This document shows, one piece after another, positions 41,748-63,548 of a stretch of 64,000 nt of DNA. The position numbers and the translations under genes were made by a program. Source of the stretch: Blasia pusilla. Taxonomy: Eukaryota. The number at the start of each line of letters is the position of its first letter. The first letter of the stretch is position 1. The notes below the pieces were generated by a model, which saw only the letters and a list, made by a program, of their open reading frames with translations, was not told the origin of the DNA and searched no databases. The stretch covers positions 9,672,001 through 9,736,000 of the forward strand of contig CM114271.1 of the NCBI GenBank assembly GCA_050084515.1, in the 5' to 3' direction.

Positions 41748-42519
41748 GGATGCAAAATGAGGTTTTAGATTGTACTTTCATTTTTCAAGAACCTTCACTT
41801 TTAGCTTGAACTCTATTCAGCCTAGGGCAAATGGTAGATTGTTTCCGGATCTTGGATGGAAAAAGTGATTGGTTCCACACTTATGATTCCACTGATTTTT
41901 CAGTTTTGTATATTTTGTGCAATTTGCAACCAGTCGGACTCAGATGGGTTGCCAAAATATGGAAGAGAAAAAAGATTTGTGGGAGTGTTTAATAACTGAA
42001 CAAAAAAGTGCAAAAAAATTCACACAAAAAGTTTCCTCTCTTCAACCCAACTGAAACTCTCTTCAAAAAAAAGTATCTATTTCGGTTGAAGGTAGTTTCC
42101 TCTCTCCTCTCTCCTTTCTTCCTTTCTTCCTCTCCTCTTACCGCACCTCCAACCCATCAGGGTTGAACTATTTGCAGGCCTTGCATACATGCAACTTGCA
42201 ACCCGTCGGAATTCGACAGGTTGCACACTCATGCAACCAGTCGGGTTCCAACGGGTTGCACAAACATTCCTCGTGCATGATGTCACGCTCCAATGGGTAA
42301 TACAAACATTCTTGATGCAACCCGTCGGTTTTCGACTGGTTGCACATTCAGGCAACCTGTCGTATCTAACGGATTGCTTGGTTTCTTCCGTTTGAAATCC
42401 CTATAGTGCCCACGCTTCTTAACTTGGGCTGTAACTTTTCAAACAATTCTCAGCATGAGCTCGATAGGACGAAATAATGAACTCACCTGCCATATGAAGT
42501 TTCCCCATTGTCTCATTTG

Positions 42520-42790
42520 TCGTGCGCATACACATCGCTACACAACAACAAAATATCCCTCGGTAGGGAACTCTGGTACCCCTGTACTGCGGACGGAGAC
42601 AATAAGTCGGGAAAACGTAGGCGTAATTGCGCCACATGTCGTAGTGAGACGCGCCTCGCAACATCATCACTCTCCACATACAAGTACTGTTGTACTCGCA
42701 CTCCTGCCTACAAAACAGCAGCTAACCCGGTGCTAATCCCTCCAAAGAGATCTAACACTCGAATACCCTCATCCGGGGTACACCACACAA
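42520..42790 (-). pseudogene. N-terminal part of a C5-cytosine DNA methyltransferase domain (DNMT3-like)
   Basis: IRVLDLFGGISTGLAAVL*AGVRVQQYLYVESDDVARRV..H..LPRDI matches motifs I-III; catalytic PC motif lost by truncation. Confidence 0.75.
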
Positions 42791-42829
42791 TGGGTGTAGT
42801 ATCCAAGGGTGTCATCGTAGCACTCCCCG

Positions 42830-45569
42830 CTACCTCGGGTTCCTCGGACTGCCACGCCTGGGTGCATACGCCCGCTCCACGCGGTGATGCACGCAAGATC
42901 GCGCTAATCGTTGAAGCTCCTCAGTCGAGCCCCACAACGGCACCTCTCCTCCACGGAATGATGCAGCTACCATAACACTCCTCTCCATAGAAATGTCAGG
43001 AACAGGAGTATCCTCTGCATGGACATGTCCCTCAATCAAATCACTAGGCCAAGTGATGGCACTGCTAAATGCTGCTAAGGTCGCCATCTCTCCTGGCCGT
43101 TGCTCGATCACTGCACTTGTGAATCGAACGGGTATTGAGCTAAGGCACCCATCACCTGACTTCCATCCTCGTCTGTAGGACGCTGACTCCTCCCAGTAAT
43201 CCAGGGAAAACCCCATCGGGTATAACACTGCTCCACCAACCAAGACGTCGTAGGACTCAGCATCAGTCACTATCGCCTTGGCGCGCACCACGGACTCATC
43301 TGTAGGATGTCCCGGGCGAATCCTCACCACGACCTCCTCTCGGGTGATATATTGTGTGGTACTTGCTCCACCCAAGGATGTCTGTATCCGAAATGGACAA
43401 CACTCCACATCGGCTCTCGTCAAGCCCAATCCTCTGAATGACGCTTTCCCCAACATCAAGGGTTGCGCTCCTGAATCCAACAAGACGCGTTGCGGACTAA
43501 AAGCTCTACCTCCAAGACTCACCAACTGGAAGACCTCTCCTTGGTTATCCAGAAACACAACACCAGGAGAAGCCATGGCACGCTCTATCGCGGGTCTAGC
43601 GGGCATCTCCGCCATCCTAGCGACATGACCATGACTGCCATGAATCGGCGTGGGCGGCCCGAGCATCCGCTCCAAGGGCAGGTCCATCACCTCCTCTACA
43701 ATCACCTCGAACGTGATGCAGAACTTCAACTCGCTCACATAGTGAAGCGGCCAAAAAAAGCCTCGGCGGGCGTACCTCCCAACGTCACAACATCGGAAGC
43801 AGAAAATAAAGGAGTGCGGTACACAATGGTGGCCGCCCCCAACAACGTGCTCGACACATGCCCCTCATGAGCATCAACAATAGGAGTCGTCGCACTTGCT
43901 TCTCCCATCGCCCTTCGTGCTTGCACACCAACAACATTACCAACTCTCCAGGAACTTTGATGAGGACCCATCGATGAGGTCCTCATCGCTTCGCACAACG
44001 TGAAAGATTGAGGAAGCCTAGTCGTCATCGGCTTCCCCCCCCGTGGATCCAACTCTACGGCGCTCCACGCGTCGTCAAGCTGGGCGGCCTCCATCTGGGC
44101 AACCCCGCACATCCATCCAGGATCCTCTAGATCTCTGGCTGCTCCATATGATGTCGATGCCACGGATCCGGCATCGGGTAACCTCAATGCCATAGCGGCA
44201 ATCTGCTCTTGTAGCTGTTGTATCGAGCGACCATCCGGCCTCACGTCCGGCATCTCCCTCGGCGCGTCTAGGTGGTGGTACTCTACCTCCTCCACAGGCA
44301 ACTCCACCACCCTGTCGGGCAACTCCAACTCCTTGTCCCCCAACGGGACCACCTGGAGCATGATCTCTGGGCCCACCCGGACTGGCTACTCGCTCTGGTG
44401 CCCTCTTTGGCCCTCGGTCCAGACGTAACTCAGGATGTAAACGAAAACACCTGGCGCGTGTATGACCATACCTCTGACAATAGTCACACTGATAACCTCC
44501 TGGTGCAGCACCATCTCCTCCTCCATGTTGAGGCACACGTCCATGACCCTGACGAGTGCAATGCAATACCGATGATGGGCTCCACCACATGACCAATAAG
44601 TAATAGTAGGCGGCTGCTGCTGAGCCGCATATGAAGGCGCAGGTCTCTGTGGCACGGCCTCTCGGTATCCTCCCTGAGCTTGTGGTGCCACAGTCGACCT
44701 ATCTCGGAGTCCACGTTGCTACATAGGTGGTGCAGACAATCGTGACTGCTCTCGCCCAGAACCCATGGTGGCCACGCTCTCCTCCGCCATGTTGCGCTCA
44801 ATGTTCTCAGCGGTCCTAAAAACATCTCTCAACGTAGGGAAGGTGTTCATAAGAAGCACCCCTCCCGCACCCGTGTCCGCAAGGTCCGGTCCAGCATCGC
44901 ATACCATGACTGGATAGCCTGAACCTCTGTCACCCCCCGAGTGGCGTTGATCAACCGGGCGCAGCGAGTGTAAGCCTCACGCAAACTCTCACCCGGCGCC
45001 TCGAAGTCGTGGATGCTCCGCAACTTCTCCGTCACGCACCCCCGATAGCTTGCCCTCAACTCAAGCAAAGAACTCAACCACGAGGGGTTGAACCGGGACG
45101 AACCCGACTAGACGATGCAATCGCTGCTCCCGTGTGAGTGACCCTCCTAAAACGTCACTAGTGGAAGAGGCGAGCCTCTCCCGACTCCTCCTCCTCATCA
45201 TCGGGAACGGCTCCGCCCATGACACATAATGTGGGTCATAGTAGAGCCTACACGCCTCGATCTCACATGCATATCTCGAGAGAACTCATGGTAATCGTCC
45301 ATGGGCGCCCCCTCTAAATCTTTGGAACATACCGTTCCATGTCAGAACGGGTTAAACTCTCTAGAGTTCCCGGCCCGCTGGGAGTCGCACCAACTCCTAA
45401 ACTCTACTATAAAATCGTGCAACTCAATCGTGCCTACTGCACCTGAAAACCTACGCGGTCCTCTACCCTGGTCGTCCATCTCGTACGCCCAACTGGTAGG
45501 ACCACTCACAATGTGTGGCGATGTGCTCACAAACTCCTCTACACCCTCCCCCTCGTCTGACGATGACAC
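42830..45569 (-). pseudogene. gag-pol: gag-protease portion of the retroelement polyprotein
   Basis: RFSG..ELHDFIVEFRSWCD; ESLREAYTRC; knuckle CDYCQRYGHTRARC; protease VLLDSGAQPLMLG and YDVLVGG. Confidence 0.8.
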
Positions 45570-46050
45570 AGAAGGAGGTCGAGGTGGTCCCTCACGTGGA
45601 GACCCTCGAAACCTCGCGCCACTCCGCGTAAAACCTCTAGAGCTACTCTCGGGTTCACCACCTCGCCTCTTAAAGTCCCGAACAGACTCCGTGATGACCC
45701 TCGTGCCCCTCTCACCCGATCACTCTGAACCTCGTGAGGAATCCCTCAATCACTCATCCCAAACATGCGGCACTCGATCTACACTCTCTCTCCCCGAGAC
45801 GTGTAACGTGCGGCAACACGCGGCGTGGTGCGGCAAATCGACCAGGCTATCATCTCATCGACAACCTACCCTCAACACCGGACATCCCACATAGGTCTAT
45901 GTCCCCTAAACCACATACATAAATGATGCTCTCAGCATCCACACACCCAATATCCCCAAATAAATCCCAGAATCCCTCACACGTGCAGGGTAAAGGACCA
46001 AAATGGGTAACCTGAACACATGTCGATGTCGCTCCTCAGCAACTGCAAAT

Positions 46051-46130
46051 CTCATAGTCGATCATATACTCAAAATCGATCATATACTCATAGTCGATCA
46101 TATACTCAAAGTCGATCATATACTCAAAAT
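46051..46130 (+). repeat. 18-bp tandem repeat x4 (a(a/t)agtcgatcatatactc)
   Basis: Read directly in the 5' region of the retroelement. Confidence 0.9.
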
Positions 46131-48439
46131 GGTACTTACCTAAAATAGTAAGTTCCTCAATATGGCTCCAAATGAGCCGAAACGAAGGGGAAACCTGCTA
46201 TCTCAGGTTTCAAAGGGCCACAGCAGGTCACCCTTGACCTACTGGGCGTGTCCTCCACTACTCATGAAGGCGCTCTATTAGATCCCACTAATCTATCCTA
46301 AAAGACGTGACACATTCGTACAGTCCACCAAATGAGCCAAGAGCACAACTCTTTGTACTTCCCCTCAATCGCATGCTTCCTCCACCACCCGTGTAGTTCT
46401 TCTTGGCACTCCATGGCCTGTTTCAAGGTTTTGCTATCCTTGGAGCGTTGGAGTAGAGTGACATGCTCTGTCCTCTTATTCTCCTTGATGCAAGATTTGG
46501 TGTACGGGGTCACAGACTGTTGCCAATGGAAAGCATTCGACCCGTCCCTCTCTGATTGAACCTCTCCATCCCAGAACACTTCCCTGATAGCAATCCACCC
46601 AGGTTGTGCATTGTCCGCCATGAATCCATAAATTTCCGGAGGTGGCCCTTTTTTTTTCCTTCACCACCTCCAATAGGAGTAACCAACACATCTTCAAAGT
46701 GCCAACATCTCCTGCTTTTACCTCACAGACAAATATAGTTTTGAGTCCCTTCTCCACATGGTCATAAACATGAGCACCCATGGTTAACCATCCATTCAAA
46801 ATTATGTAGCAAATATCAAAGCTTACCCAGCTGCCGTAAAGATCTTCCCCTTCCCTCATTCGATCTATAAGATCGAGGCCACTCGATGGGCTTGTCGTTG
46901 ATATTTTGAAGACATAAGCTCTCGATCCTTCGCCTACCAGGCCCATGAACTCCCATCTCTGAATAAATGGCAATCTAGAGCTGGCCTTGATTCTGGAAAT
47001 GGCATCCATTTCGGCCGGCTTTCCATCCAATACCCGTATTTGATGTAGCAAATTTTGGAAGCATTAAGGATCAGCGAGAAATGCGAGATTTTCCCAAAGT
47101 AGTTTCTCCTCAGCATCCGTGATCTCGCCCTCCCAAGGATTCCAAGCAATTGTTCTCAAATTTGTGATGTTGTTGTTAACTTGATCACTCGTTGCTTTGA
47201 TCCCGGAGAGTTTCTATGTACCTCGGCCACTTTCTTTGCCACATCCTCCTTGATGTGTCCCTGAATTACACCGGTAATAGGATGAATGTGGGAGCCAACA
47301 TGAACTGCCAGCCTTGTGTACTCGGACGTAGAAGTGAAGTCGTGCACAATAAAAAAAATTTATGCACGACACGCTCCAACGCAGAAAGGGGATGTTTGAC
47401 AATGAGGACATCGATGGCCTCCCGGCGGTATGGTCGCACCGACCTCATATGGAGTTTCTGCATTCTTAGGGGAAAATTGTGATGTATTGACTCGCCCATT
47501 GCGCTCTATATACGGGCATGTTGGACTTCTACACTCCACGGCTCCAACGCATTGGCTGCGAGAACAATCCAAGGACCATCTGGAATTGAAGCACTAGTCC
47601 GTTGAAACTTGCACCATCGATGACAATCACACTTTTTGTCCATACCCTTCAAGCATCCTCCATCTTTCTTTTGAGCAGGACCAACAAGTGGAGGCAACTA
47701 AAAAATGCAATTACCATCGTACGTGGGCGGCAACTCGTCTACAAGAATGTGCTTGAAAATTTTAAAGGGCAGAGATGACAGCAAACTATTTTCTCGATAC
47801 TCGCAAGAGAAACAAGTAGGTAGATAGAGGACCTGGTTGGTGTCCGACTGTTCCACTAAGGTTGACATCCGGTATGTCTTCAGGAAGTACAACATTATTA
47901 CGAACGTGTGAAGTTGGAGTCAATGCCGGATCTACTGAGCTTGGAGTGGAAAACGTAGAGCTAGGAAATTCCGGACCGTCTACTTGGGAAACATAGGAAT
48001 TCAGAGGCAAGCCATAAACTCTGTATTGACCATTTTTTAGAGTTAGGAGATTCCATACTTTATGGTCTGCTTTCACTGGTTGGACTGTCTCATCTACAAC
48101 GTCCTCCGTACCGTCCACCCTAACATCCTTGGAAAGAAAGATTGTTTCAATTTGGAGAAGAAATTGCACTGAAAGGAAATTTTCATCCACTGGTATGTAA
48201 GATTCACGAGCTTGCGGTCGAACTATTTTTCATTGAGGAAGGGCCGCTAGTTGACTGCCACAAGTGAGTTTCACATAATTATCCATTCCCAAATGATTCC
48301 ACTGCATGGAGAATGAGAATAAGAATAAGAATGAGAATGTTTAATTTATAGTGAATAGTGATCGTTATTGTCCTGACAAAATTCGACTGACAAGATGTTG
48401 TTTGGTAGGTGAGATTGTTTGACGGAATGGATTCAATCT

Positions 48440-49325
48440 TGTTGCAACCTGTTGGAGTCCGACGGGTTGCAAATTTTGGGACTCAGACACGTGGGTTGCA
48501 AAGCCACAGAGTACCATCTTCTGTATGAGTCCGAGTGCAACTTGCAACCCGTCAGAGTCCGTTGGGTTGATACCCCCTGCCTGTCTGACCTGTGTGATTG
48601 GAGTCGGGATTTGCTAACATCGAGACATGAGACGTCGCATGGATTTGCTACGGCAACCCGTTGGGGCCTACGACGGGTTCGAAAAGCACCTTACCTCGCT
48701 TTCCCTTTCAGATCTCGCATTGATTTCTCTTGTCCGATGAATTGTGCAAACCAAAAGTGCAGATTTTCCGGATGGTGGGAAGTGTCCTACCTAGGGTAGA
48801 GCTTGTAACCCGTTGGAGGGAAACCGCTTGCCTCGGGACTATGCTTTGTCACATTGTTACCCGAGGACGAGGAACGCGTGCAACGCGTCAGTCTCTGAGG
48901 GGTTGCGCGGGTACCTTGCCTTGTTACTCCAAGATGGGGGAAGTGTGCAACCCGTCGACCTCCGACAAGTTGCACGGGAACCTCACCTTGCTACCCCAAA
49001 ATGGGGGAAGCGTGCAACCCGTCGGTCTCTGACGGGTTGCACGGTACCTTGCATTGTTATCCCAAGACCGAGGAAGTGTGCAACCCGTCACTCTCCAACG
49101 GGTTGCACGGGTACCTCGCATTGTTACCCCAAGACTGGGGAAACGTGCAAGCCATTGGTCTCCGACGGGTTGCTTGGATTCCTCACCTTGTTACCCGAGG
49201 ACAAGGGATCTGTGCAACTCGTCGGTCTCTCACAGGTTGCCTCAGTAACTCGCCGTGCATCCCCAAGACAAGGGAAGCGTGCAACCCATCGGAGACCGAC
49301 GGGTTGCTTGGGTTCCCACTTGCAA
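48440..49325. repeat. Intergenic palindrome array, copy 5
   Basis: ~66-bp period with a linker family (gggtacctcgcattgttaccccaag) different from copies 1 and 4. Confidence 0.9.
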
Positions 49326-49722
49326 AGATCCATAACGGCCTACACGTCACCCTAAATACAACCCAACAATCCAATGGTCAGCTCAACGGCTCGGAAAGTA
49401 TAAAAGGCTGAGGTTTTGATCTTTTCCGTTTTTCATTTCGTGATTTCATGTGCTCTTCCTCGTAGCAGCTGACGTTACCTTTCCGCTGCCAAACTCGATT
49501 ACATCACCACTTTGCTGAAAGGTTACGACGATCCAGCAATTGACGCTTCCAGGTTTGGATTTTGGCAAGCCCATTCTCTGGAGGGTCACGACGCTTCATC
49601 ACAAAATGCTAAGAGAGTTGGGTTTGGGGTCACGGCGCTTCGTCACGAAACGCTTCGAGGGGTCTATCGTGCACACGAGCATATTAGAGAGTCGAGGAGG
49701 AAGAACTGACCCAACGTGCACC

Positions 49723-52700
49723 ATGACGAGAAAGAAAACACAAGAAACCAAGGTAGGGAGCATCACTCCCAAGTCCATCAAGACTCATGCGTCACCATCT
49801 CCACGTCCTCGTTCGGCGAATGAGATAAGGCAACAAGAAATAGAGGAGCGGGAAAGGGAAGCAGATATGCACAGGCAAGAGATTCTAGCAAAACGTGTTC
49901 TGGAGGAGCTTGCTAAGCAAAACACCAAGGCTAAGGCATCGAAGGCCTTGAAGAAAAGAGTCGCGGACGAGAAACGCGAGAAGAAGCATCTTGACGCCTC
50001 TGTGAGGAGAGCAAAATTGGCAAAATCTCGAAGAGAAAAAGCAATCGCCATTGAAGAAAGCCTTGCCCGTCCAATAGAGAGTGTTGAGATGTACGAAATG
50101 TCTCCAATGAGGTCTGGGGACACCATGAATATAAAATAGGCTGAGGAAAACGGCCAAAGTTCAAGTGACGGACGATGAGGTCATGAGGACAACAAGTGTG
50201 GAGATGGTGGAGGTCTATGAAAGTAGGAGAAGAGACCTCGTTGTCTTTGAGCCCTGTGGAAGAAATCGACCTTTATGGGATCGATGAGTTTCCCGTGGAC
50301 TTGCCTGCTGGTGTCTTAGAGCAGTTGGCGAGCCTGGACACCGACCCAATCTTTGAGCGGGTAAGAAAAATTTGAGTTATGTGAAGGCTCATTATGCAAT
50401 TCATTGGCAAAACACTGCATGTTATTGACTTGATCCTCATTATGGCAGGTTTTTAAGAACATGGCACTGATGGAGGGCTAGAACGCCTCAAGAATTCCAC
50501 TCTGTCAATTGCGGACAATGGAGTACGTCCGCGAAATTCAGTCAGAGGAGGATATTGCAAAGCTAAAACAGTTGGCAGCGACTGCATCCTACGTCGACAA
50601 CTTCCCTCCGTTCTATGTTCAGCCTTACGATGAACATGGAACCCAAGCGCAAGTGATGGAAGAGGACTTAGAGGAGCTGGATACTTTTTGGAGGATGAGA
50701 GATCAGGAGTTCAGAAGAGCGATTGAAGGAACCAAATTTAGCAGGATGCGGAACCTTTACTTCTTCATCTAGGATGGAAACCACAAGTACATGGCATGGA
50801 CGCAGTTTGTAGAGGAGCGCCCAAATTAATTGGAGGTGCATTTTTGCGTGAAGGCAGTAGTGCTCCATCCATTTCCTCATCACATGGAAACGGTGGAAAT
50901 GGAAATACATGCGATGAATACGTAAGTTTCCTCTTCCTTAAGTTTGATTGCTTCAACCCATTGGAGTCAGACAGGTTGAATAATTGGAAAGCTTAAAGAT
51001 TTGAGTCTCTTGCGACCATCCTGTTTGTGGTCAATGTCATAGTCAAGCAATCCGTCGGAGTCCGACGGGTTTCCTGGTGGCCAAGGACAACATCGACAGG
51101 TGGAAAAATGAATGCATGATTTGTTTGTTCTGCAATCAGCTAGACTCTGACGAGTTGCACAACGAGAGGTAACAAATCATTGGGCATCTAAAAGCAACTC
51201 GTCAGAGTCCAACGAGTTGCTGGACTGTCCGGTATCTTTTGGATATTTTTGGCCGAAAGAAACTCGTTGGACTCCGACTGGTTGCATTTCTTCCATGTGT
51301 TACCATTTTGACCCCCATGGGTTGACAGAATTGCGACCCATTGGAGTCCGATGGGTTGCACAAACCCGATAGCCGCAGTGTTCTTACTTTGTGTTTGGAT
51401 GTGCATGGTTGTATTCGAGGGGAACATCACCCACCACTAGATCCACGATTGCGACATGGTAAATAAGGTGCTTACGACGCACCCGACAGAGTATAAGGGA
51501 TTCCTGGGCAACGGTCTGGTGAATGAGATGCTCGCAAAGGGAGCTCAAATAAAAAAGAAGACTTGGGCAAATACCTTCATTTCCCAAGATGCAGCCATCA
51601 CAATCCTATGTTGGTCCAAGATCTAGGCCGTCAAGAAGAGTGCGTCGTTGGAACTAGAGCGAAGGGAAAACGTGTATGCGTCGAAACGTGCAAAGTTTAT
51701 TTTGGCTGCTGTATCTGTAGCTACAAAGTACATTGCAAGCAAGATGCAGCGATACATTGCGATTCTCAACCACGAACTTGGCCCAAACTTTTACAAGGAG
51801 CTCAAGGCGATAATCAAGCGCCAACGGAAGAGAGACGAAGATCCACAGGGTTGGATTGGCGAGAAAGTGTCTCTGGACTGTGTGCACAGATTTGCGTTGT
51901 CTGGGATATCCAAGTTTCCGGAGAATTTGACAAATGAAAATCAGTCTCGAGGGCACTAAGGCCCAAAAGCGGGCGGCACACCATCCTCAGAAAATTTCAG
52001 ATCCAGTGATCTCCCATTGGCTACAGGAATGGTCATTCTGGGACGCATTACACCTTCTCAAGAAGTCCATGCTCGTGGGTCTTCAAGCGGAGCTGAAGAA
52101 GATTGAGCCAGTTCCAAAGGAAGCAAACCTAGAGGCTACAAAAGATTTTGAACTATGGCTTGATGACATCATAGATAAGCCCACGAAAAACCCAGGATTC
52201 AGGATGATGTTCGAGAATCACATCCTCCCTTAGGCAGACATGGATGAGGAAATAGAAGACAAAAAAATGGGATTTTGCAAAGAAGAAGCGGGATCTTCAG
52301 GACCAAGCTGCCAAGTCATCTAAAAAAAGAGCTCCCTAGCGGATGGTGTACAGGTACCTCATCAATTGTAAGAATGCAAGAACCTGGCAAAAATTATCGG
52401 CAGCTTGCAGATTGTGGGCTTCTGCGCCTGATGGAGAGGCATTCTCCATGTACGACATGAAGATGGGACAAGGCATGTCCGACTAGGAGGTTAACAATTG
52501 TCCAATCTGGTTGGACTTCAACGACCTAGAGGACATTACAGAAAAAAATCTATGCGTGGTGTATGATGCAATGGTCGCAAGTAGGGACGACATTCCAAAC
52601 TTCGTGCAACTCGAGGATTTTTGAAGGATATGCAAAGGAGCAAGCCCTCGAGACAGCAAAGTTGGTGGGCAAGGTCGTCACCACCAAAGACAAATCCACA

Positions 52701-54784
52701 ACGGGTTTGAGGAAGATGAGGGGATCGAGGAATTCCGAGGCGGAGTCTTCCAGAAAAGAAGCCGAGTCCTCAAGGCAAGAGGCGGAATCTTCCAAGAGAG
52801 CATGGCGAGAGGGCCGGACGAGGTCCTCATCCAAGAAAACTCCTTTGGAGTCTGAGGTAACAGAGACTCCCACAAGCCGACAGCAGACTTGAGAGAAGCG
52901 TATGGTTCGTTTGAGGGAGGAGATAAGGATGTGAAATACACTCCATCATCCTTGGGCAGACATAGGGAAACAACCACTAGGACAAATTTCCTTGTTCACT
53001 TGACTCATCTTGTCAATGAGCTGTAGAGTTTCAGTTCTCGGGAGTCGACACCTACCATTGACAAGTTGACCGTGCTGGGATGGAAACTCCTTCAAACGGG
53101 CACGCCCCCTAGACGGTGCATGGGGTTGTTGAGGAGGTGGCGGTGGACCTCCTCATTGCGGATTTTCCTTCTGGGTTTTGCTTGTGGGACAACAATCCGT
53201 CTGACACTGTCCCAGACTGGAATGTCCCGCTTTCGTACAACCAGATCGCGCTGTTGTTCTCTTTTGCCGACGCGTATTTGAGTGACAGGGGTTGTTTCTT
53301 GGTCCTCACTAGATGGAGCAAAGATGAGCTCTTCAACCTTCAGTGCGTGAAGAGGTCGCTAAAGTGGAGGACCGTGCAATCATGGATAATTAAAAATGAG
53401 TACCCACTCCGATCGGCGACCAGTCAAGTCCAAATAAGTTCTCTTATTCAACGAGTTTTGTTTAACAGAAATTCAACCCGTCGGGCTCCAACGAGTTGTA
53501 TATGTGCATGCAACCCATCGGATCCCAACAACTTGTGTCTGCGGTGTTGCAATCCGTTTGAAAGTGACGGGTTGCAAATTCTTAGTATCCGAGTCTCCAT
53601 AGATTGCAACCCGTCGAAACCCGACGGGTTGTAAGTAGCATTGCTTTTCCATGTTTCTATAGTGATGCAACCCGTATGAAAGCGACGGGTTGCTCTTATA
53701 TTAGGAGCTCAACTCTGAACAATTGTATCAAGTTATAAGCCAACCATCGCACTCGGAACGGTGGAGCTTCTGTCCAGCAAGATGAGCAACCTGTCGGTTT
53801 CCGATGGGTTGCTCATCTATCACGCCTATTGGCCCATTTTGGACGAGTTGGTAATTACTATGGACTAGTATGACAGGTTGAAAAGCAACCCGTCGGATCC
53901 CGACAGTCTGCACATTGTGTCAGTTTATGGAGAGTATAGCAGCGGTCTACTAGCTTTTTCTTTTTGCTGACATTATTTTTTACTTGCTTGTTACAGATGG
54001 ACCACTCATTTTTCTATTGCTTTGTAAGGCCCGAGCACAACTTCCAGGTGTTCTAGATCCCGGATCCATGCTCCGATGGGTACAACTTAGATAGTCTCTA
54101 CAATTCCCCCCCCGGGAATTTACATGCAAGATGGGACCCCCTTACTTGGAGGGAGGGAAAAGTCACCTGCCTTGATGCAAACACTCATTAAGCCCTGTTC
54201 GAGGCCGGGTGACTTGGCCTTTGACTTAGTGGGCCTATCAGGGGCGAGTATCACAGGCGCTTGGCACAGTGGCAAAGGCGGATTGTGAGATGCTAGTGGG
54301 AGTATACAACTCTCCTCCAAAGCCAACAGCTCCGGTTTCAGAACCACCATTGATAGTGATACCATCGTCACTTCCTACTATTCCAAAAATCAGGAGGGCA
54401 AAGCCGAGAGTAATTCTGGACGAGCTATAGGACGATGACAAGTGAGTTTAAAGATTTATTGGACCCATCTTGACTGAAGCGTTTTGGAGTAGGGATTTAG
54501 TGCTTTCCAAGGACGGAGCACATATTGATACTGGATGGGTGTCACCTTGCAGAGCATACAATATTTACTACCGAAGAAGGCGTTGGGACTCAAATCATTT
54601 TACATGGGACCGTTATGGTGTACCTAGGGGGGGGCCAAGGCTCTCGAATTCCCCAACATTTTTGATCCCCGTCTACAATCGGCTAGAGGAGCCACTTGTA
54701 TCCCAAGACATTCCTTTTGTACAGGAACCTAGGAGAATTAGGAGTAAATTTGTAGATGACGAGGCTAAAGAAATCTTAGACTAG
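49723..54784 (+). pseudogene. Gene A, copy 5, full length; exons approx. 49723-50360, 50449-50921, ~51408-53436, 53997-54784
   Basis: MTRKK start; gtaag donors at 50361 and 50922; acceptor ttacag|atggaccac at 53996; ParB-like and methyltransferase motifs; many premature TAG codons. Confidence 0.8.
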
Positions 54785-56126
54785 ATCAAATGTACATTTC
54801 CAAGCTTTCCTCGGATGAAATAAAGGACACGAAGTTTTTGAACCATCATGGTTTTTGTAAACTCCTGCTGAATTGTTTTTCGTTCTTGTCAATTGTGTTG
54901 GTCTATGTACTGGAGGGTGTTTATTTTGCAACTTGTCACAATATTTTAAACCCCTTGCAGGCAACTTGTCGGATTCCGACAGGTTGGCTGCTTGAGTGAT
55001 CCCACTCTTTTCTTGTTAGTCCAACTCTTCATGCATTTTGGCAGGCTTCTTCACTTTTGCCTCAATCCCCCATTTCGTCATACCATTTTTCTCTAACACA
55101 GTATTTCAGACACGTGTTGGATTCCTACTACCTGACGGATTCTCATGTCAAATTCCCAACCTATCGGATTCTCATGGGTTGTAGGGTGGAATGGAATCAC
55201 TTCTCAAGATCCTTCTTTGTTGTAGTATGCTTGCTTGCAAGGGGTGCAACCCATCGGATTCCGAAGGGTTGCAAGAGTTACAACCTGTCGGATTCCGACG
55301 GGTTGGAATGGGTGCAACCTGTCGGGTTCTGCCATTTAGGGTATGAATGAAGGGACATGGGTGCATCATTCCTTCTTTACTCCTGACAGCTATCAACCTT
55401 TTGCTTCAATTTTCCTCTCAGTCTGATCACATTTTCTTCTTGATGCATACATTTATCAATGGCTGAGAGAATGGTGGAACCAAGTTGTCAAACGCACAGC
55501 AGTCCATGGTATACTTTATGCATCCATTCATGAGCCAACATCATCCAATGCTGTCATGAAAGTCTTCGGCTACCATCAGTGATGAGTGATTTGTTCTGTT
55601 GTGGAAAACCCCCTCATGGATGAGTATTGATTGGATGGGATATTTAATGCAAGAAAAGTCAACAATCCATAATGTCAACCACATCTTCAAGGAAAATAAA
55701 CCTTAAAGGGCACAGGAGTCTATTGAGACCATAGTTAGAGTCTTTATTTGAACCTTTCATTGAGATAAAATTGCTACTTCTGGTCAAATTATCTACCGAT
55801 GGTCCTCCAACAATAATACCCCTCTGCCCGGCTTACTGTAGAGGTGGCTTAGACAAGCAATGTGAAGAAAATTGGGCTCACATTGAGAGTGATGGAAGGA
55901 TGTTTGTAGTGGTCTTATGATGTCTGGTGAAGTAACCTTCTTTTTCCAAGCGTGGAAAAAGAAGGTTACTTTAGGCCCTAATGTGGTCCACTTGCTACTC
56001 TCTTCAAAAGATTTCATGAGTTTGAAAGCAAACAAAAAATTAAAAAATGTCAAAATTTTTTGAAGAGAGGAGGCGGATTCGGACATATTTTTTGAATAGA
56101 GACTCTCCTCTCTTCCTCCAGCCCCC

Positions 56127-58113
56127 GAAGGATGGCAATATTATGTCTCTATCCTTCCTAATGGTGATCTGTATGGCTTTGGAGACCAAGATGCACCTCA
56201 CAATGGGAAGAAAGCAATTAATCCATTGGATAGATGCTCAACTACTTGTGTCCTTGGAAATCAACATGCATCTCTATCATATGTGACAAATGTCTATAAC
56301 CACTACAAAATTCATGAGCATGGCTTGAACTGGGATGATGTGAATAGGACTGATAAGAAAAATTGGGCTAGGCCTCAACGAATTGCTTCAAAGAGAGTAC
56401 AAGCTTGTTTGCAGGATATGTTTGAGAGAACGGATGTTCGCCATGACAAAAGCCTAGGGACCCAACTATATTTGGAGGCTTGTGGTAATTACATTGATAT
56501 TTTCTTCTCACGTAAGCATGACTTGAGGAGTCGTGTAGTTTAGGCATCTAAAGTGTCGTGGTTCTTTCGACTCTGGAGACTTTGGCTGAGACATGGTGAT
56601 CATTCTGTGACAGGGAGTGTAGGATATGTGCCAGAGAAGAATATGATATCAGTGCAAGCTTTCCATGATCTTGCCATTTTATTGTATTACTAATGTGTTC
56701 TTTTCGTGACAAGTATCCATACTTGCAAGTTCCATTTCACCTCCTAGGATCTAATAATTGTGAGATCTTCTTCAGCAAGGTAGGTGGAATGAGTGGCCAT
56801 GAACGGAACTATGATTTTGGGTCTTTTTTGGATAGTGCAATGGGATTGAATAGACCGGCTGGCTTGGAACTTGGACCAGAATGATTAAAGATTGGTCTGT
56901 CTCATCCAAAGCAAGATCACGTGTGGGAAACTCTCCATCAGTTAGGTATAAGATAAGATGCTCCTAACTTGTTTGACTATTCATTAATTCAGACTAATAA
57001 GATAGTAGTTCATGCCCTTAAAGAGGGTTTGGATGAAGCAAAATCAATATTGAGCAGATTGAGTATGTCTCCTAGGTCCTCTTTGCCTACAAGTCAGAGG
57101 CGATGGTGGTTGCATCCACAAGATATGGAGGCAGAGACGTGGCTTGATTCTGCTGTTATAAATGAGACAGTTGCATGTGATGACTCTGAGGATTTCGTTG
57201 AACATACACCAACAGTAGGCCCTTGCCCACCCAAGGAGTCTAGTGTTGATGAAACACAAATTGATGACCCAATGCAAAGGGATTTCAATAGTCTTGATGC
57301 TTGGGAAAGTGATGCACCAACCTTTGTTGAGTCTAGAGTGATTGGTGAGGACTTGGTTGAGGATGCAGATAACAATCCCTCCATAGAGACAAAAATATTG
57401 GGACATGAGGTAAGGCATGTATTCAGTTCAATTCTGCAAGAGTGCACAGATGGAGTTCCCCGTCAGGTTGTGCCTACTGTGATATTTGAGGGCAAAATAT
57501 ACTACAAGTCCACTTTGGTGAGTGATTGGGCCTGCAATCCTTTCATTTCTAAAAAGATAGGCTAACATGGATGTCACAGAAAACATATTACACTATAGGT
57601 AAGGTAAAAGAACCAAGTAATCTAGATTTCCCAACTTGTTATGTTGACATTGGAAGTGATGTAGCTGTTTTGTTTGAGTCTACTACACAAGTTGGACCTT
57701 CTACTAGATCAAGTAAGTCAAAGAAGAGAAAACAAAAAGACTTGGATGAGAACAGAATAGTCCCTACAAAAGAGTTTTGGTTAGGTCGCATTCTATTCAT
57801 CAAACAAAAATACGGTAGTCAATGGGGTAGATGTAGATCTCCTATTGATCTTTTGGACTGACTTGTCCCAAAAGATGGACAGACAGGCAGTGTTTGTCAG
57901 ATATTGTGCATTTGGTATCGGCGCATAGGTAAGAGCAACACCTTGTTCACATATGATGCATGTGATGGCCAATATATTGACATTTAAATGGTGATTTCAA
58001 ATGTGAGCTTATCCATGAAGCCAAGTCTTACATCCAAGACATATGAATTGGATAACGGTGATTTACAAGTGATCAATGATTACATCCGCAGCCTGTCATC
58101 TTTTGCCATGTAA
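56127..58113 (+). pseudogene. C-terminal half of the P-element-like transposase
   Basis: GDQDAPHNGKKAINPL; DVNRTDKKNW; GTQLYLE; FFRLWRLWL; HLLGSNNCEIFFSKVGG (catalytic Glu region). Confidence 0.6.
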
Positions 58114-58238
58114 TGTGCATGTTATAGTGTGAAGTCATTTTCTGAGCTTATGATAGGCTAGTTTTGGGAGGGGATAGGTTGGGGGGATGACGGCTTGGCT
58201 ATATGAGCATCATGCCCATACTGAGGTTCAATTCATCT

Positions 58239-61200
58239 GGGGGCAGGTATTCTGGCAAGAGAGAGTAAGAGAGGAGAGGAAGAGAGGAAGAGAGGAGAGT
58301 CTCTCTTCAAAACTTTTTGACATATTTGAATTTTTTGTTTGCTTTCAAATTCATGAAATCTTTAGAAGAGAGTAGGTAGTGGTCCACATTTGGCCCTAAA
58401 AAAAATTCCTTTTTCCTGGGGGCGAAAAAAAAGTAGACATCATAAGACCACTACAAACATTTTTCCATCACTCTCCATGTGAGCCTAAGTTTCTTAACAT
58501 TACCTGTCTCGGTCTACAAAAAGCAGTGCCCATGGGTATTTTTGTTGGAGGACCACCCGGATGCCAACCTCTCTTTTTGCAGGGATTGTTGCCTGCATCA
58601 TGGCCTCCCCTGAATTGCCCCATAACCAACTTTCTCTTGGTTATGAATGGTGTCTGCTCAAGACCAACTTTGTGAAATATGAACACATGAGAGGATAATT
58701 GAACCAAAAGATTGTTAGCTGTTTGGAGTAAAGAGGAACTAATGTCCCTTCATTCAGATCCTAAGGCTGAGAAACCGAGAAGCTGCACCCCTCCCAACCC
58801 GTAAGAAAGCTCACCATAAGAAAGGAAAGATTTTTAGAAGTGATTTTCTTCCACCCTGCACCCACGACGATCTAACAGGTTGGGAATCCGAAATGGCAAT
58901 CTGATAGGTAGTAGGAATCCTGCACATCTTAGACAAGAAAAGAAGCCTACAACTGGTTTGACGAATGTAGGGGAACGAGCCAAACGTTAAGAAGCCCGCC
59001 ACAATGCGTCAGAAGTTGGTCTCACAGGGAAAGAGTCTGATCACTCAAGCAGTCAACCCGTCGGAATCCGACAGCTTGCCTAGAAATGGTTAAAAAGTTG
59101 CAGTGGGCAAAAAGCAAAAAGTTGCAACCCGTCGGAATCATACGGGTTGCAAAATTGTAATTCTGAGTAGCTAAAAGAACACAATCCACAAGTCCAACAA
59201 AATATTCCATCAAACTTTTGCAAACACCATTATGGGTTGAAAAAATCTCGTCCTTTATTACCTCCGAAGGAACCTCGGAAATGTACATTTGACCTAGTCA
59301 ATGATTTCTTCAGCCTTGTCATCTACAAATTTACTCCTAACTCTCCTCGGTGACAGTACAAAAGGAATGTCATGGGATACAAGTGGCTCCTATGGCTGAT
59401 TGTAGACGGGGATCGAAAATGTTGGCGAATTTGAGAGCCTTGGCCCCCCCCTAGGTACGCCATAACGGTCCCATGTAACCTGATTTGAGTCCCACCGCCT
59501 TCCTCTGCAGTATACCTTGTACGCTCTACAATGTGACACCCATCCAGTATCAATATGTGCTCCGTCCTTGGTAATACCATGATGGCAATCGCACAGGTAG
59601 TAGGAATCCAACACGTCTGAGAGAAGAAAAGAAGCCTACGCCTGCCTTTACGAGTTGAGGGGAAGCTGCCAAGGGAAGAAACCCGCCAGACTGCCTCTTA
59701 AGTTGGACCAACAAGGAAAGAGTCCGATCAGGCAACCTGTTGAAATCCGACAGGTTGCCTGGAAGTGGTAAAAAGGTGCCGTCGTCAAAAAGTGAAAAGT
59801 TGCAAGCAGGAGAAATCCGACGGGTTGCAAAATAGAAGTTCGCGGAGTACAAAGACGATCACATTCGAAAAGACATAAAAAATGTTCAGAAAACTACAAC
59901 CGGAGCTCTCGGCTTCGGTGGAGAGTTATACGCCCCAACGAGCCTCTCGTATTCTGCCTTTGCCTCCTTGCAAAGGTCAAACAGTTCCTGCCTTCCCTCA
60001 AGGCAAAGAATGTTCCTGCCACTCTCCCAAGCGCCTTTGATACTTGCCCCTGAAAGTCCGACTAAGTCGAACACCAAGTCACCCGGCCTTCAGCAGAGCT
60101 CGATGAGCGTTTGCATCAGGGCTGGCGATTTTTCCCTTCCTCCCAGAAGTGGGGTACTGTCTTGCATGTAAATTCCCGGGGGATTGTACAAACTATCTAA
60201 GCTATACTCATCTGAGCATGGATCCACAGGATCCTGGATCTTGAACACCTGGAAGTTGTGTTGGGGCCGAACGAAGCAGTACACGTAGGAGTGGTCCATC
60301 TGTAAAGAAGCACGTTGGAAACAATGTCAGCAACTAAAGAAGTCGGCTTGACCCTAGAGAACTTTTTCAATTACTAACTTTGGATCAACCTGTCAGAGTC
60401 CGACGGGTTGTTTGAAGAGCTCGTCCTCGCTCCCTCCAGTCAACATCAAGAAGCAGCCCCTATCACTCAGATAGGCGTATGCAAAGGAGAACAATAGCGC
60501 GATTTGGTCATAAGAGAGCAAAGACATTCGTCAGTATTTCGTCCGACGGATTTCGCCCGATATCGCAACCCCGAGGGGCGGATCAGCGATCAAGAGATCC
60601 ACCGCAACATCTTTGACCACTCCATTCACCGTCGAGGCAGCGTGCCCGTTTCGTTAGAGCTTCTGTCCCAGCGTTGTCAATTTATCAATGGCTAGTGTCG
60701 ACGCTTGAGAACTGAAGCTTTTCAGCTCATCCAATAAAGGAGTGGACTGAAGGAGGAGGCTTGTCCGGGTCGTTGTTTGTCTGTGTCTTCCCAAGGATGA
60801 TGGACTGTATTCTCCTTGGGACAACCCTGGCACCTCTCGCTTCCGCTTCTCCCGAGTCTGCGAACGGCTTGTCGAGGTCTCTATGACCTCATACTCTGGT
60901 GGGGTTTTTTTCGCCGAGGACGTGGTCCGACCCTCTCTCCCCGCTCGCCCGGACGATTCCGCCTCTGGCCTTGAATCTTCAGCCTCTCTTTGGGAAGACT
61001 CGGCTTCGGAATTTTTCCCTCCCCTTGCCTTGCCTTTGAGACCCACTGTGGATTTGTCTTTGGTTGTGCTGACCTTGGAAGCCAACTCAGTTGTCTCGTA
61101 GGCTTGCTCTTCTGCATCTCCTCTGAAGAAGTCTTCAGGCTACACAAAATTGGGAATGTCGTCTTGTCCTGAGGCCACTTCATCATGAAGCACTCGTAAA

Positions 61201-63548
61201 TCCTTATCGGTGATGTCTTCAGGGTCGTTGAAGTCAAGCTAAATGGGGCAATTCTCCACCTCCCAATCGGACATGTGCTGCCCCATCTCCATGTCGTACA
61301 TGGAGAATGTCTCTCCATCAGGCGGCGAAGCCCACAATTTCAAGGTTTCCGGTAATTTTCCCCAGTTACCTGCATTCTTACACTGGACGAGGTACCTAAA
61401 GACCATCCGTTGGGCAGCTTTTACTCAAACTGAATCGGCCGTCTGCTCCTGTAGATCTCGCTTCTTCTTTGCTTGATCCCGTTTGTTCCCCTCGATTTCT
61501 TTGTCAAGCTCTGCCTGAGGGAGGACGCAAACCTTGAACATTATCTTGAATCCTAGGTTTTTTATTGGCTTATCCCGGATATCGTCAAGCCAAACCTCGA
61601 AATCTACAGAACTTTCTAGGTTTGCTTCATCCGGAATGGGCTCTAATCTTTTGAGCTCCGCTTGCAGACCGTCTAGCACGGACTTCCCGATAACCAATAG
61701 CAGCCCCAAAGACGACCATTCGCGTAGCCACTGGGAGATCACTGGATCGGACACACCCGGAGGATGGTGTTCCGCCCTCTTCTGGGCCTCTGTGCCCTCG
61801 AGATTGATTTTCATCAGCCGGATCCTCCTAAACTTGCTTATGCCGGACAACGCAAATCGATGCACGCGATCCAGGGACACTTTTCGACGGATTGCATTCA
61901 GATTTGCTAATGCCTAATGAGGGAATGGATGAAGGACCACTGCCTTCACGCAAAAATGTGCCTCCAAGGAGTTGGGCCGCTCCTCTGCAAACTTGGTCCA
62001 CGCCATGAACCTGTGATTTCCATCCCAGATGAAGAAATACAGATTCCTCATCCAGCTGAATTCCGTGCCCTCTACTTGCCTTCTGAAATCCTGGTCTCTC
62101 ATCCTCCAGAATGTGTCAATCTTTTCCAAGTCCTCCTCCGTAACCAGGGCTTGGGTTCCATGCTCGTCGTAAGGCTGAACATAGAAGGGAGGAAAGCTAT
62201 CGACGTAGGATGTTGTCTCCGCCGATTGTTTAAGCTTCGCGATGTCTTGGTCGGACTGAATTTTGCGGACGTATTCCATTGTCTGCAATCGGCAGAGTGG
62301 AATCCTCAGGGCGTTGTGGCCCTCCATGAGTGCCATCTGCTTTACCACCTGTCAGAACCGGGACAAGATCAATAAGCTACACTGAATTCCCAATGAATTG
62401 CAATTCACATAATTAAAAAAATCCAGATCCTCTCGTACCCGCTCGAAAATTGGGTCGGTTTCTTGACCAGCCAACTTGTCTGAGAAAATCTGGAAGCTGG
62501 AAAATCGACTGGGAACTCGTCGATCCAATAGAGGTCGATGTCTTCCGCCGCGCTTGAAGACGAGAATGACCGCTCTCCGGATTCTTCAGCAATGTCCACC
62601 ATCTCCACGCTGGCGGTCCTCATGACCTCATCGTCCGTGATTTGAACTTTTGGCATTTCCGCTATGTTGATTGTGTCCCCGGACTTCATCGGGGACATTT
62701 CCCGCATCTCAACACTTTCGGTTGGACGGGCAGGGCTGTTGTCAATGGCTATCGCTTTTTCCCTCCTCGCTTTAGCCAAGTCTGCTCTCCTCACCGACGC
62801 GTCCAGATGCTTCTTTTCTCTCTTTTCGTCGGCGATCCTTTTCTTCAAGGCCTTCGTCGTCTCAGCCTCTGCGTTCTGTCTATCGAGCGTCTCTTGAACA
62901 CGTCTCGCAAGAAGCTTCTAGTTGTGCATCTCCGCTTCCCTTTCCCGCTCCTCGATTTCCTGTTGCCTAATTTCATTTGCGTTTAACGAGGCCTCGGAGA
63001 TCTTGACGCAGAGTCCTAATGGACTTCGAGTGAAACTCCGCACTTGTTTGCTGTGATTTTTCCACGTCATTTTTTCCGGAAATGCCTCCACCTATGTCCA
63101 CGATGAATCGCTTGATCAGTCGCCTTGCTGATGTCGAGATGAGTCGCCTTGATGGGTAGCTCGAATCGTCTCGCGATCATTCAGTCGAACCGTCTCGCTC
63201 TCGTTCGGTCGAACCGTCTCGCTCTCGTTCCCTCGTATCGACTCGCGATGACTCGCCGTGTGAAACGCCCCTTGGTATCTGATCAGCTGCTGCGCGGGAG
63301 AGAGAGGAATGGAGATCGCGAAATGAGAAACCGGAAATGAGCGATTTAGGCCCTATTTATACTTTTCTAGCCGTTGGGCTGACTGTTGGGTCCCGTCGTC
63401 CTTTTGACGGCGACGTGCCGGAGGTTACGGAAGTCCGGACGTGAAAAATGGCAACCCGTCGGAGTCCGACAGTTTGCGCGCCTCCGCCGTCCTGGGTACG
63501 TCGCCACGTGCGGAAGAAACCCGTTGGAGACCGATGGGTTGAGCACCT
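58239..63548 (-). mobile_element. Mutator-like element copy 6: right terminus and gene A on minus with several deletions
   Basis: Starts GGGGGCAGGTATTCTGGCA, the reverse complement of the 14383 end; very similar to copy 4. Confidence 0.8.
59294..63070 (-). pseudogene. Gene A, copy 6
   Basis: ORFs 62405..62848, 61914..62348 (DGNHR), 61425..61880, 60654..61085, 60090..60299 and 59886..60077 (VFDLVGLSGASIKGAWESGRNILCLE). Confidence 0.8.

Follow-up and report, generated by a model that had tools for sequence, protein, structure and literature searches.

A methyltransferase-derived domain with altered motifs in a decayed, probably transposon-borne gene of Blasia pusilla

When a repeat-rich eukaryotic locus spells out what looks like a bacterial DNA methyltransferase, is it an enzyme, the relic of one, or a protein put to another use? 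The question is raised by a 64,000-nucleotide stretch of the Blasia pusilla genome (NCBI GenBank assembly GCA_050084515.1, contig CM114271.1, positions 9,672,001 to 9,736,000 of the forward strand). We refer to this 64-kb stretch as “the window” and number positions from its first letter. It is eukaryotic and repeat-rich, and introns of the GT..AG type are present. An initial annotation, made from the letters alone, placed a beta-class amino-methyltransferase domain of bacterial type at 53116–54290, split by an intron, with non-canonical catalytic motifs recurring across several copies. Here, we describe the gene that contains this domain, its relatives, and the repeated unit to which it belongs. 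We favor the view that the studied copy is a dead accessory gene of a ~12-kb, probable Mutator-like (MULE-type) element, and that its methyltransferase-derived domain was probably a non-catalytic or atypical DNA-recognition module.

The gene occurs in six copies, which we call A (2712–1, cut by the window start), B, C, D, E (the studied locus), and F. It is ~4.7 kb long, and its predicted product of roughly 1,150 aa has an N-terminal domain, named WDGNHR here after a conserved motif, and a C-terminal methyltransferase-like domain. The similarity of copy E to the other copies begins at 49720–49723. The peptides first taken as methyltransferase-like are present in its frames: AVDLLIADFPSG...ADAYLSDRGCFLV lies in the frame open from 53113, which reads ..VHGVVEEVAVDLLIADFPSG...ADAYLSDRGCFLVLT...SWIIKNEYPLRSATSQVQ, and EKSPALMQTLIKPCSRPGDLAFDLVGLSGASITGAWHSGK lies in 54091–54288, which reads ..GGREKSPALMQTLIKPCSRPGDLAFDLVGLSGASITGAWHSGK. 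A tblastn search of the window with each domain half found five copies of each, query included, on both strands and with 61–85% identity to the query. The parts of the gene and of its copies are as follows.

49723–54430 (+): copy E of the gene, from the ATG (MTRKK...) to the stop after ...RVILDEL; a pseudogene, delimited by open reading frames (ORFs) and similarity to the other copies.
53116–53433 (+): N-terminal half of the methyltransferase-like domain, in the last part of a long exon; motif IV (DFPS) at 53161–53172.
53434–53996 (+): phase-0 intron of 563 nt, placed by DNA alignment of the copies; acceptor AG at 53995–53996, donor mutated to AT.
53997–54430 (+): C-terminal half, with motif X–I (REKSP...GDLAFDLVGLSGAS), then a motif II remnant; motif I at 54208–54249.
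53113, 32840 (−), 11300, 24284 (−), and 60632 (−): copies of the N-terminal half found by tblastn.
54091, 60194 (−), 12451, 23437 (−), and 31932 (−): copies of the C-terminal half found by tblastn.
11300–12790 (+): both halves and the intron of copy B, with motif IV DFPS.
32520–32876 (−): open stretch of 119 aa from exon 1 of copy C, in which motif IV is DLPS; exon 2 of this copy runs to ~31799.
23171–23557 (−): exon 2 of copy D, 129 aa, the sole uninterrupted C-terminal half in the window, carrying GQNILRLE with the acidic residue of motif II.
59976–60632 (−): both halves of copy F, with both exons broken.

The N-terminus of the protein is rich in Lys, Glu, and Arg and probably forms a coiled coil (..EIRQQEIEEREREA..KKRVADEKREKKHLDASVRRAKLAK..) that is conserved among copies, at 49519–50139 (+), 62405–62917 (−), and 20732–21160 (+).

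Is the C-terminal domain truly related to methyltransferases? Taken alone, the pieces in the window would leave room for a chance resemblance: the C-terminal half of copy E matches the Pfam family N6_N4_Mtase (PF01555) at E 0.37, exon 2 of copy D matches M.RsrI in the PDB at E 0.41, and exon 1 has no match. Other models do better, with exon 2 of copy D matching PADLOC type II methyltransferase models (including MTase_II) at E 2.9e-4 and 8.1e-4, and window sequence matching NCBIfam PRK13699 at E 0.022. Against the full representative library, the same exon gave 12 HMMER matches at E<=0.001. Two of these, P0009 and P0012, are the only single-stretch matches over the motif region, and P0012 scores 26.5 bits against PF01555, just under the cut-off of 26.7. 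The other six of the eight matches retrieved were discarded as repeat proteins matched in three to seven stretches; the remaining 4 of the 12 show five to eight stretches.

The relationship is strongly supported at the level of the family. A five-row family alignment (profile A1) found, at E 1.6e-21, a protein of Ceratodon purpureus (M758_1G295400, 1147 aa, hereafter P0013), which has a paralog of 661 aa (KC19_7G101700, hereafter P0014) whose source label is “DNA methylase N-4/N-6 domain-containing.” P0013 matches PF01555 at 30.4 bits over model positions 2–217 of 221, so the Pfam search that had been proposed for this domain succeeds through P0013 and stays short of the cut-off for the window pieces alone. 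P0014 matches PADLOC MTase_II at E 4.4e-10 over positions 30–250 of 260. Against the PDB, profile A1 aligns in register with solved relatives, namely the DpnA-type structures 5hek (E 5.4e-5) and 5hfj (9e-5), M.RsrI (1eg2; 0.0046), M.MboIIA (1g60; 0.064), and CcrM (6pbd; 0.072). Searched by tblastn against phage and plasmid DNA, the two Ceratodon proteins match 277 phage and 142 plasmid records (best E 5e-3 and 1e-3); the 40 matches listed all lie in the region of the C-terminal motifs, mostly within genes that carry a DNA methyltransferase annotation.

We also compared profiles directly. The relatives fetched were from Xanthomonas phage KPhi1, Vibrio phage VH-8, Staphylococcus phage KSAP7, Mycobacterium phage Marker, and an E. 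coli IncY plasmid; the hhalign reference comprised the four phage methyltransferases, and the merged comparison used all five phage/plasmid references. Exon 2 aligns with the phage enzymes at 90% (E 1.7e-6), the Ceratodon pair at 96.9% (E 1.6e-10), and exon 1 at E 0.0094 over 24 columns at motif IV. The exon-1 profile aligns in register with the N-terminal half of the Ceratodon domain (E 0.0051, 66 columns). A merged profile of the Ceratodon, exon-1, and exon-2 rows reaches 98.3% and E 1.1e-14 over 260 columns, a figure that presupposes the placement of exon 1. Its alignment reads aDLiI.D.P (motif IV), W.K, then HEKS..mQtLi..Cs.pGD.v.DL...sGaS......SGr..lgiE. The order of motifs is permuted, i.e., DFPS at 53161 precedes REKSP...DLVGLSGAS at 54154–54249, and the order is the same in P0013 and in the merged alignments. 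Chance resemblance is thus effectively refuted, as the profile comparisons agree on which residues correspond to motifs IV, X, I, and II of beta-class enzymes.

These comparisons place the domain among the homologues of the permuted beta-class (N6_N4) amino-methyltransferases, and its nearest recognizable relatives by alignment are N6-adenine enzymes. The initial assignment to the amino-methyltransferase type therefore holds, and its joint N4-cytosine/N6-adenine framing can be narrowed, since the closest solved and annotated relatives are N6-adenine and not N4-cytosine enzymes. The domain most likely descends from a prokaryotic or phage beta-class DNA amino-methyltransferase. No close prokaryotic or viral relative was found in the viral, genome, and metagenome contig collections searched. 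A protein search with the C-terminal region of P0013 retrieved only P0013 and P0014.

How much of the gene is shared with Ceratodon? In a tblastn search of the window, P0013 matches five copies at residues 225–382 and five at residues 1041–1119, collinearly, and residues 225–382 match every copy that keeps that region, at E 7e-15 to 6e-19. Since both regions match collinearly, the window gene and P0013 share their whole architecture, i.e., a WDGNHR domain, a long middle, and a C-terminal permuted methyltransferase-like domain. The first of these domains lies in copy E as follows.

50446–50865 (+): conserved N-terminal domain with motif FFIWDGNHRFMAW, located by tblastn of P0013 residues 225–365 (E 1e-15).

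Identity between the two species is ~30–45% in the two conserved domains. The Ceratodon proteins are annotated as single genes, whereas the window gene is multi-copy.

The N-terminal domain carries an invariant FF(I/V)WDGNHR..AW. We take the DGNHR within it to resemble the ParB/Srx/DGQHR motif. A search of the PDB with a profile of the domain (A2) gave only sulfiredoxin, at E 2.1, and no ParB/Srx identity followed from it. The domain has no match in Pfam, NCBIfam, or PADLOC, no HMMER match to PF12520 or ParB in P0013 or the window ORFs, and no tblastn match in phages at E 10. An AlphaFold2 model of the 145-aa window WDGNHR ORF (five rows) is unusable, with a predicted local distance difference test score (pLDDT) of 40.9. 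In Atlas language-model features, offered as leads only, the domain of P0013 lies nearest to DUF3723 clusters (0.95; 178–180 of 256 features), with ParB_N at 0.91. On these features, the WDGNHR domain may be ParB/Srx- or DUF3723-like.

Is the gene spliced as proposed? The split of the domain by an intron is borne out both by alignment of the copies and by RNA reads. In the DNA alignments of the copies, exon 1 ends ..CAA GTC CAA at 53433, the donor reads GTAAG in copies C and D and ATAAG in copies E and B, and the acceptor reads TTACAG followed by ATG at 53996/53997, with exon 2 starting ATG GAC in phase 0. Three RNA-seq runs with the same species label were aligned to 49500–63100 at 90% likeness, yielding 269, 313, and 298 reads, of which 252, 281, and 285 are 90–95% alike and 0, 4, and 0 at least 99% alike. 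Because most reads are 90–95% alike, they derive from paralogs, and copy E is essentially silent. Depth reaches 16–20 across 54040–54947, and about nine-tenths of these reads have the first mate on the minus strand, which is the sense orientation if the library is of the usual stranded type. At precisely the acceptor (53995/6), 28 reads from the three runs (9 + 8 + 11) depart into other sequence. In one run (X3), two reads join 53429 to 53996 with TCG between, spelling ..CAA GTT CGG followed by ATG GAC.. (..Q V R, then M D..). This joint matches the junction expected from the end of exon 1 in copy C, so the acceptor and the phase-0 junction are used in real transcripts. Paralogs of the gene are transcribed and spliced.

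The sequence most commonly spliced to exon 2 would read ..HTTYNE before MDH, closer to ..HPLYDDM of Ceratodon than to the window copies. This sequence suggests that a family member closer to Ceratodon is expressed from another place in the genome. Farther upstream, 30–54 reads per run pile up on 50499–50542, a 44-nt core of the WDGNHR exon; the flanks of this pile are ~80% like the window and stem from a paralogous, diverged N-terminal domain exon.

Could the domain work as an enzyme? Catalytic motif IV has the form (D/N/S)-P-P-(Y/F/W), and SPPY, DPPY, NPPY, and DPPW are among the forms quoted in the accessible text of PMC8885841. The window copies carry neither this motif nor the F-x-G-x-G S-adenosylmethionine (SAM) loop of motif I. 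Motif IV is DFPS in copies E and B and DLPS in copy C, and the stretch is missing in copy D. Copy F reads DPPL in frame (~60576–60584); skipping one C gives DPPSGLRY.., nearer to DLPSRLRL.. of copy C. The DPP first noted at ~60570–60586 is therefore better read as a +1 frameshift over DPPS, and the idea that this copy keeps a more canonical motif was rejected. All four copies that keep motif IV thus have D-x-P-S, where Ser (encoded by TCT, TCA, or TCG) replaces the aromatic residue. All five copies read G-D-L-V-F/L-D/N-L-V-G-L-S-G-A/V-S at motif I, with synonymous differences in the Val, Gly, Leu, Ser, and Ala codons. The SAM loop is V-G-L-S-G in the same five, so that the first Gly of D-P-F-x-G-S-G-T-T is Leu. 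The non-canonical form that the initial annotation gave to both motifs is therefore general in the window. Other positions are conserved: the Lys of the “HPxxKP”-like stretch is kept, as is the acidic residue of motif II (NILRLE in D, NILCLE in F, aligned with GIE of the phage and PDB enzymes), a segment deleted in copy E.

The relatives show which of these changes are peculiar to the window. P0013 and P0014 share with the window copies a non-canonical SAM loop, D-L-x-x-x-x-G-A-S. Their loop reads S/A-A-S-T-G, with Ser rather than Leu for the first Gly, and their motif IV keeps an aromatic residue (DTPF and DQPY). Two of the fetched phage enzymes carry DLPY and DIPY. Together, these forms imply that the second position of motif IV is free, and that the aromatic fourth residue was lost only in the window lineage.

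The motifs bear directly on the main rival explanation, which we consider unlikely: that the protein was an active DNA amino-methyltransferase, most probably N6-adenine-specific, with an unusual active site, and that it marked the DNA of its element as phage orphan enzymes do. The retained motif II acidic residue, the motif IV Asp, and the second Gly of motif I would suit such an enzyme, as would the variable second position of motif IV in phage enzymes, the aromatic residue of the Ceratodon proteins, and the adenine specificity of the nearest solved and NCBIfam relatives. The Ser that replaces the aromatic residue in 4/4 copies and the Leu that replaces the first SAM-loop Gly in 5/5 argue against it. 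In addition, changing SPPY to APPA abolished the activity of the rotifer enzyme N4CMT, according to the accessible text of PMC8885841; this was a double mutant, hence the comparison is indirect.

Whatever the protein did, copy E no longer does it. Copy E is a pseudogene: a TAG at 53110–53112 (TGG in copy B) stands before the domain, the intron donor is AT, and exon 2 has a TAG at 54054–54056, a frameshift near 54100–54110, and a ~57-nt deletion near 54273 that removes ..RNILCLE..... Its WDGNHR domain region contains three stops. The interval 53116–54290 is thus a methyltransferase domain by homology and, in this copy, one with stops, a frameshift, a deletion, and a lost donor. The other copies fare no better. 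In copy B, a TGA interrupts exon 1, and exon 2 carries a frameshift and a TAA; in copy C, 13 nt are missing upstream, exon 2 contains a TAG, and telomere-type repeats cut the copy short; in copy D, whose segment is inverted, exon 1 contains a TGA and the motif IV stretch is gone, with only exon 2 intact; in copy F, exon 1 is frameshifted and truncated, and exon 2 contains a TGA (ELC*RPG). Copy A is cut by the window start before the methyltransferase-like part, which is broken somewhere in every copy that reaches it (5/6). The telomere-type repeats form a (TTTAGGG)n block of ~4.5 units at 31768–31798 (−), exactly where exon 2 of copy C is cut off.

Was the domain already functionless when the element multiplied, its motifs alike through common descent only? 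Broken copies and degenerate catalytic motifs would fit such a relic. To compare copies, we computed ratios of nonsynonymous to synonymous divergence (dN/dS) by the Nei–Gojobori method with our own script, projecting copies on one reference frame and dropping codons with gaps or stops, which left 75–127 codons; several pairs involving copy D were saturated and gave no estimate. Between subfamilies, dN/dS is 0.08–0.11 for exon 2 (pairs E–F, E–C, B–F, B–C, D–E, D–F, and F–C, with dS 0.24–2.7), 0.11–0.19 for exon 1, 0.06–0.22 for the N-terminal domain, and 0.14–0.29 for the middle regions. The methyltransferase-like domain is therefore among the most constrained parts of the protein. In the closest pairs, E–B and C–F, dN/dS is 0.11–0.57 (0.34–0.57 in six of seven comparisons, and 0.11 for C–F exon 2). 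Low values between subfamilies and higher values within close pairs would follow if constraint acted on the active lineages and copies decayed once inserted.

By these estimates, the domain was under purifying selection while the subfamilies diverged. The consistency of the motifs across copies, stressed in the initial annotation, is real; alone, it would be expected from common descent, and its weight comes from the dN/dS of ~0.1 between subfamilies, which the comparison proposed there has now supplied, and from synonymous change. A ratio of ~0.1, with odd motifs kept through synonymous changes, indicates that the domain was functional. These values (0.08–0.19 over 75–127 codons), the many synonymous changes in the motifs, the strength of constraint on the domain relative to the rest of the protein, and its retention in Ceratodon at ~40% identity together make a functionless relic very unlikely. 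Strong purifying selection on the domain would suit an active enzyme as well.

To what does the gene belong? In copies A, C, D, and E, it is part of a fixed arrangement, in which leftward transposase-like segments (X–Y) are followed by an array of 67-bp units and then by the rightward gene. The parts of this unit are as follows.

46313–48504 (−): transposase-like fragment (segment X), 85% identical to 39676–37482, divergent from the copy E gene.
37482–42151 (+): fuller transposase-like gene of copy C, divergent from the methyltransferase-like gene.
15787–19696 (−): transposase-like ORFs, divergent from the methyltransferase-like gene.
48849–49307 (no strand): array of 67-bp units, each with a 27-bp palindrome, between the two genes.
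56098–56126 (+): right end of the element, where copies B, E, and F lose similarity and the flanks differ (end motif: 3 matches vs 0.02 expected).

The transposase-like ORFs include a “GFMADNA” DDE-like stretch, and ORF 38927–39604 is nearest to Atlas clusters of MULE/ZSWIM RNaseH-like type (0.94; PF10551/PF21056), which is a lead only. A CxxxC..PCKH stretch in 16201–16782 (−) is presumably SWIM-like, judged by eye. Copies B, E, and F stop being alike at the same base, after AGAGACTCTCCTCTCTT.CT...CCAGCCCCC; on the other side, copies C and D begin at the same point (~42100 in C and ~15790 in D). When one end is inverted, it matches the other over 30 nt (93%, E 5.8e-8), with another match of 19 nt at 100%. 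Summing the parts gives a unit of ~12 kb. The element is probably a MULE-type DNA transposon.

An alternative is that the gene belongs to a host family, horizontally acquired and duplicated segmentally beside unrelated transposase fragments. Two Ceratodon homologues annotated as ordinary genes on contigs of 18–29 Mb, paralogs that are transcribed and spliced, neighboring transposase-like ORFs that Pfam does not recognize, and target-site duplications that are not shown would all be compatible with a host family. We consider it quite unlikely given six copies within 64 kb, in both orientations and with dS from 0.1 to >2; the order of gene, array, and transposase-like region in four copies of different subfamilies; the three copies that end at the same base with unrelated flanks, at ends that are inverted matches; and the breakage of the methyltransferase-like part in 5/6 copies, i.e., all that reach it.

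The window contains other mobile sequences. A long terminal repeat (LTR)-retrotransposon gag lies at 7156–9059 (−), with Retrotrans_gag at E 2e-10 and zinc knuckles at E 3e-8. Another LTR-retrotransposon piece, G+C-rich and with a faint suggestion of an aspartyl protease (E 0.098), breaks up the transposase side of copy E at ~42400–46300. Long ORFs at 29625–31191 (+) and 56100–57565 (+) (MADPSAKCWNDEF..., ..FAEDETRIKG.., ..GDQDAPHNGKKAINPL..) have no Pfam match; the latter is flanked by the ends of copies E and F, which are placed tail to tail. We take both to resemble transposases of the P-element/THAP9 type.

The 27-bp palindrome, GCAACCCGTCGG-N3-CCGACGGGTTGC, is not confined to the array. 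Within the window, it has 81 matches at three or fewer mismatches, against 0 expected, in arrays, introns, the transposase side, and the ends (e.g., 3154–3784, 36718–37343, 48947–49307, 53606–53911, and 42198–42343); the intron of copy E alone holds four, at 53606, 53667, 53786, and 53885. Every listed match lies inside stretches assigned to the element, and none in retrotransposon stretches. Rich in CpG, the palindrome may be a site that a protein binds, or else an internal mini-repeat. Its resemblance to type II targets would suit an active enzyme, which could have marked these sites. A more specific possibility, which we regard as doubtful, is that a land-plant MULE family carries a selected protein, prokaryotic or phage by ancestry, with a ParB/DUF3723-like domain and a pseudo-enzyme methyltransferase, and that this protein reads the palindromes in the manner of parS, with kinship to the DUF3723 genes of fungal Starships. 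Such a protein would aid transposition, self-marking, or anti-silencing.

We favor, as stated at the outset, an accessory protein of the element whose methyltransferase-derived domain most likely recognized DNA and was non-catalytic or atypical. The altered motifs and the domain as a whole were held by strong purifying selection as the subfamilies diverged, so the protein was of some use to the element. The methyltransferase-derived module would have acted, together with the WDGNHR domain, on the DNA of the element itself, with the palindromes that fill it as candidate targets. The role may have been in transposition, self-marking, or escape from silencing. The analysis shows the homology, the intron, the decay of copy E, the repeated multi-copy setting, the purifying selection, and the transcription and splicing of paralogs; we infer the transposon superfamily, the loss of catalysis, and the DNA target.

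Several observations weigh against this reading. First, the homology of the window pieces is faint when each is taken alone. The PF01555 match at 54091–54288 scores 11.1 bits against the cut-off of 26.7; Pfam has no match for the N-terminal half or for exon 2 of copy D; the N-terminal half alone has no PDB match; and a search with exon 1 for longer proteins found none among 551 candidates. The N-terminal half is linked to methyltransferases by P values of ~0.005–0.01 in one-to-one hhalign comparisons and by its position in the gene, and the merged-profile figure takes that placement as given. An AlphaFold2 model of the Ceratodon methyltransferase domain (seven-row alignment) has a mean pLDDT of 34.7 and is unusable. 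Second, the loss of catalysis is argued from motifs only, and DLPY or DIPY in phages and DTPF or DQPY in Ceratodon make activity plausible in some family members. Third, no copy within the window is intact. The commoner sequence upstream of the acceptor is absent from the window and unlike exon 1 of the window copies, and the reads at 50499–50542 run into a stop after ..REIQ; given this stop and the unfamiliar upstream sequence, the transcripts may stem from defective copies too. Fourth, the eight transposase-side ORFs have no Pfam match, with no MULE or SWIM domain among them; the inverted match at the ends is GA-rich, imperfect, and short; and no copy in the window keeps both ends. Lastly, the link between protein and palindrome is one of co-occurrence only.

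In eukaryotes, amino-methyltransferases of prokaryotic type are rare; N4CMT and MpDN4MT1, the two that have been studied, are enzymes of the host and have canonical sites. The transposon-borne methyltransferases in the literature that we found are C5 or Dam-type enzymes in retrotransposons, and in open-access literature text we found no plant DNA transposon described as carrying a beta-class domain. What differs here is a beta-class N6_N4-type domain in a plant element, apparently of the cut-and-paste kind, where it is fused to the conserved WDGNHR domain and where active-site substitutions appear to have been kept by selection. It would illustrate from nature how a mobile element can put the fold of a DNA methyltransferase to another use, perhaps that of reading sequence, and the protein and the 27-bp palindrome form a candidate protein–site pair that can be tested. 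The stretch studied is itself a decayed copy only.

How does this domain compare with known systems? Orphan N6-adenine enzymes of phages and plasmids have the same permuted order, and align as vDLi..D.P, W.K, HPtqKP..L...LI...s.pGD.VlD...GsG....A...gR..iGiE. They are stand-alone proteins of 230–370 aa with D-[PLI]-P-Y and G-S-G, whereas the window domain ends a eukaryotic protein of ~1,150 aa, is interrupted by an intron, and has Ser for Tyr and Leu for Gly. METTL14 (EPPL for DPPW) has likewise lost the aromatic residue of motif IV while staying conserved and binding nucleic acid; as an RNA-directed host protein of the MT-A70 family, it serves as an analogy only.

Bdelloid N4CMT (PMC8885841) and Marchantia MpDN4MT1a/b (10.1101/2021.02.12.428880) also have a prokaryote-derived, permuted N6_N4-type domain in an intron-bearing eukaryotic gene. 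The accessible parts of these two sources describe enzymes of shown activity, with canonical SPPY/TSPPY, that are encoded by low-copy host genes. The likeness to these co-opted single host enzymes that was suggested at first does not extend to the window gene, which has D-x-P-S, is multi-copy within a repeated element, and has a different N-terminal domain; it is set apart from them by their descriptions.

For the other half of the protein, the comparison is with fungal Starships, in which DUF3723 (PF12520) is an accessory gene of a large mobile element, according to the available portion of 10.1101/2021.12.13.472469. DUF3723 is nearest to the WDGNHR domain by Atlas features (0.95), a lead only, with no HMMER match to PF12520. 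The closest parallel in theme comes from eukaryotic retrotransposons, some of which carry DNMT, Dam-type (alpha-type), or PCIF1-like methyltransferase domains; that of DIRS1 is inactive, with catalytic and substrate-binding residues substituted (accessible parts of PMC4738411, 10.64898/2026.05.21.726589, and PMC5890265). These cases share with ours a mobile element that carries a prokaryote-like nucleic-acid methyltransferase domain. They differ in that their domains are of C5, Dam, or PCIF1-like type, whereas the window holds a beta-class N6_N4-type domain in an apparent cut-and-paste DNA transposon of a land-plant-like genome.

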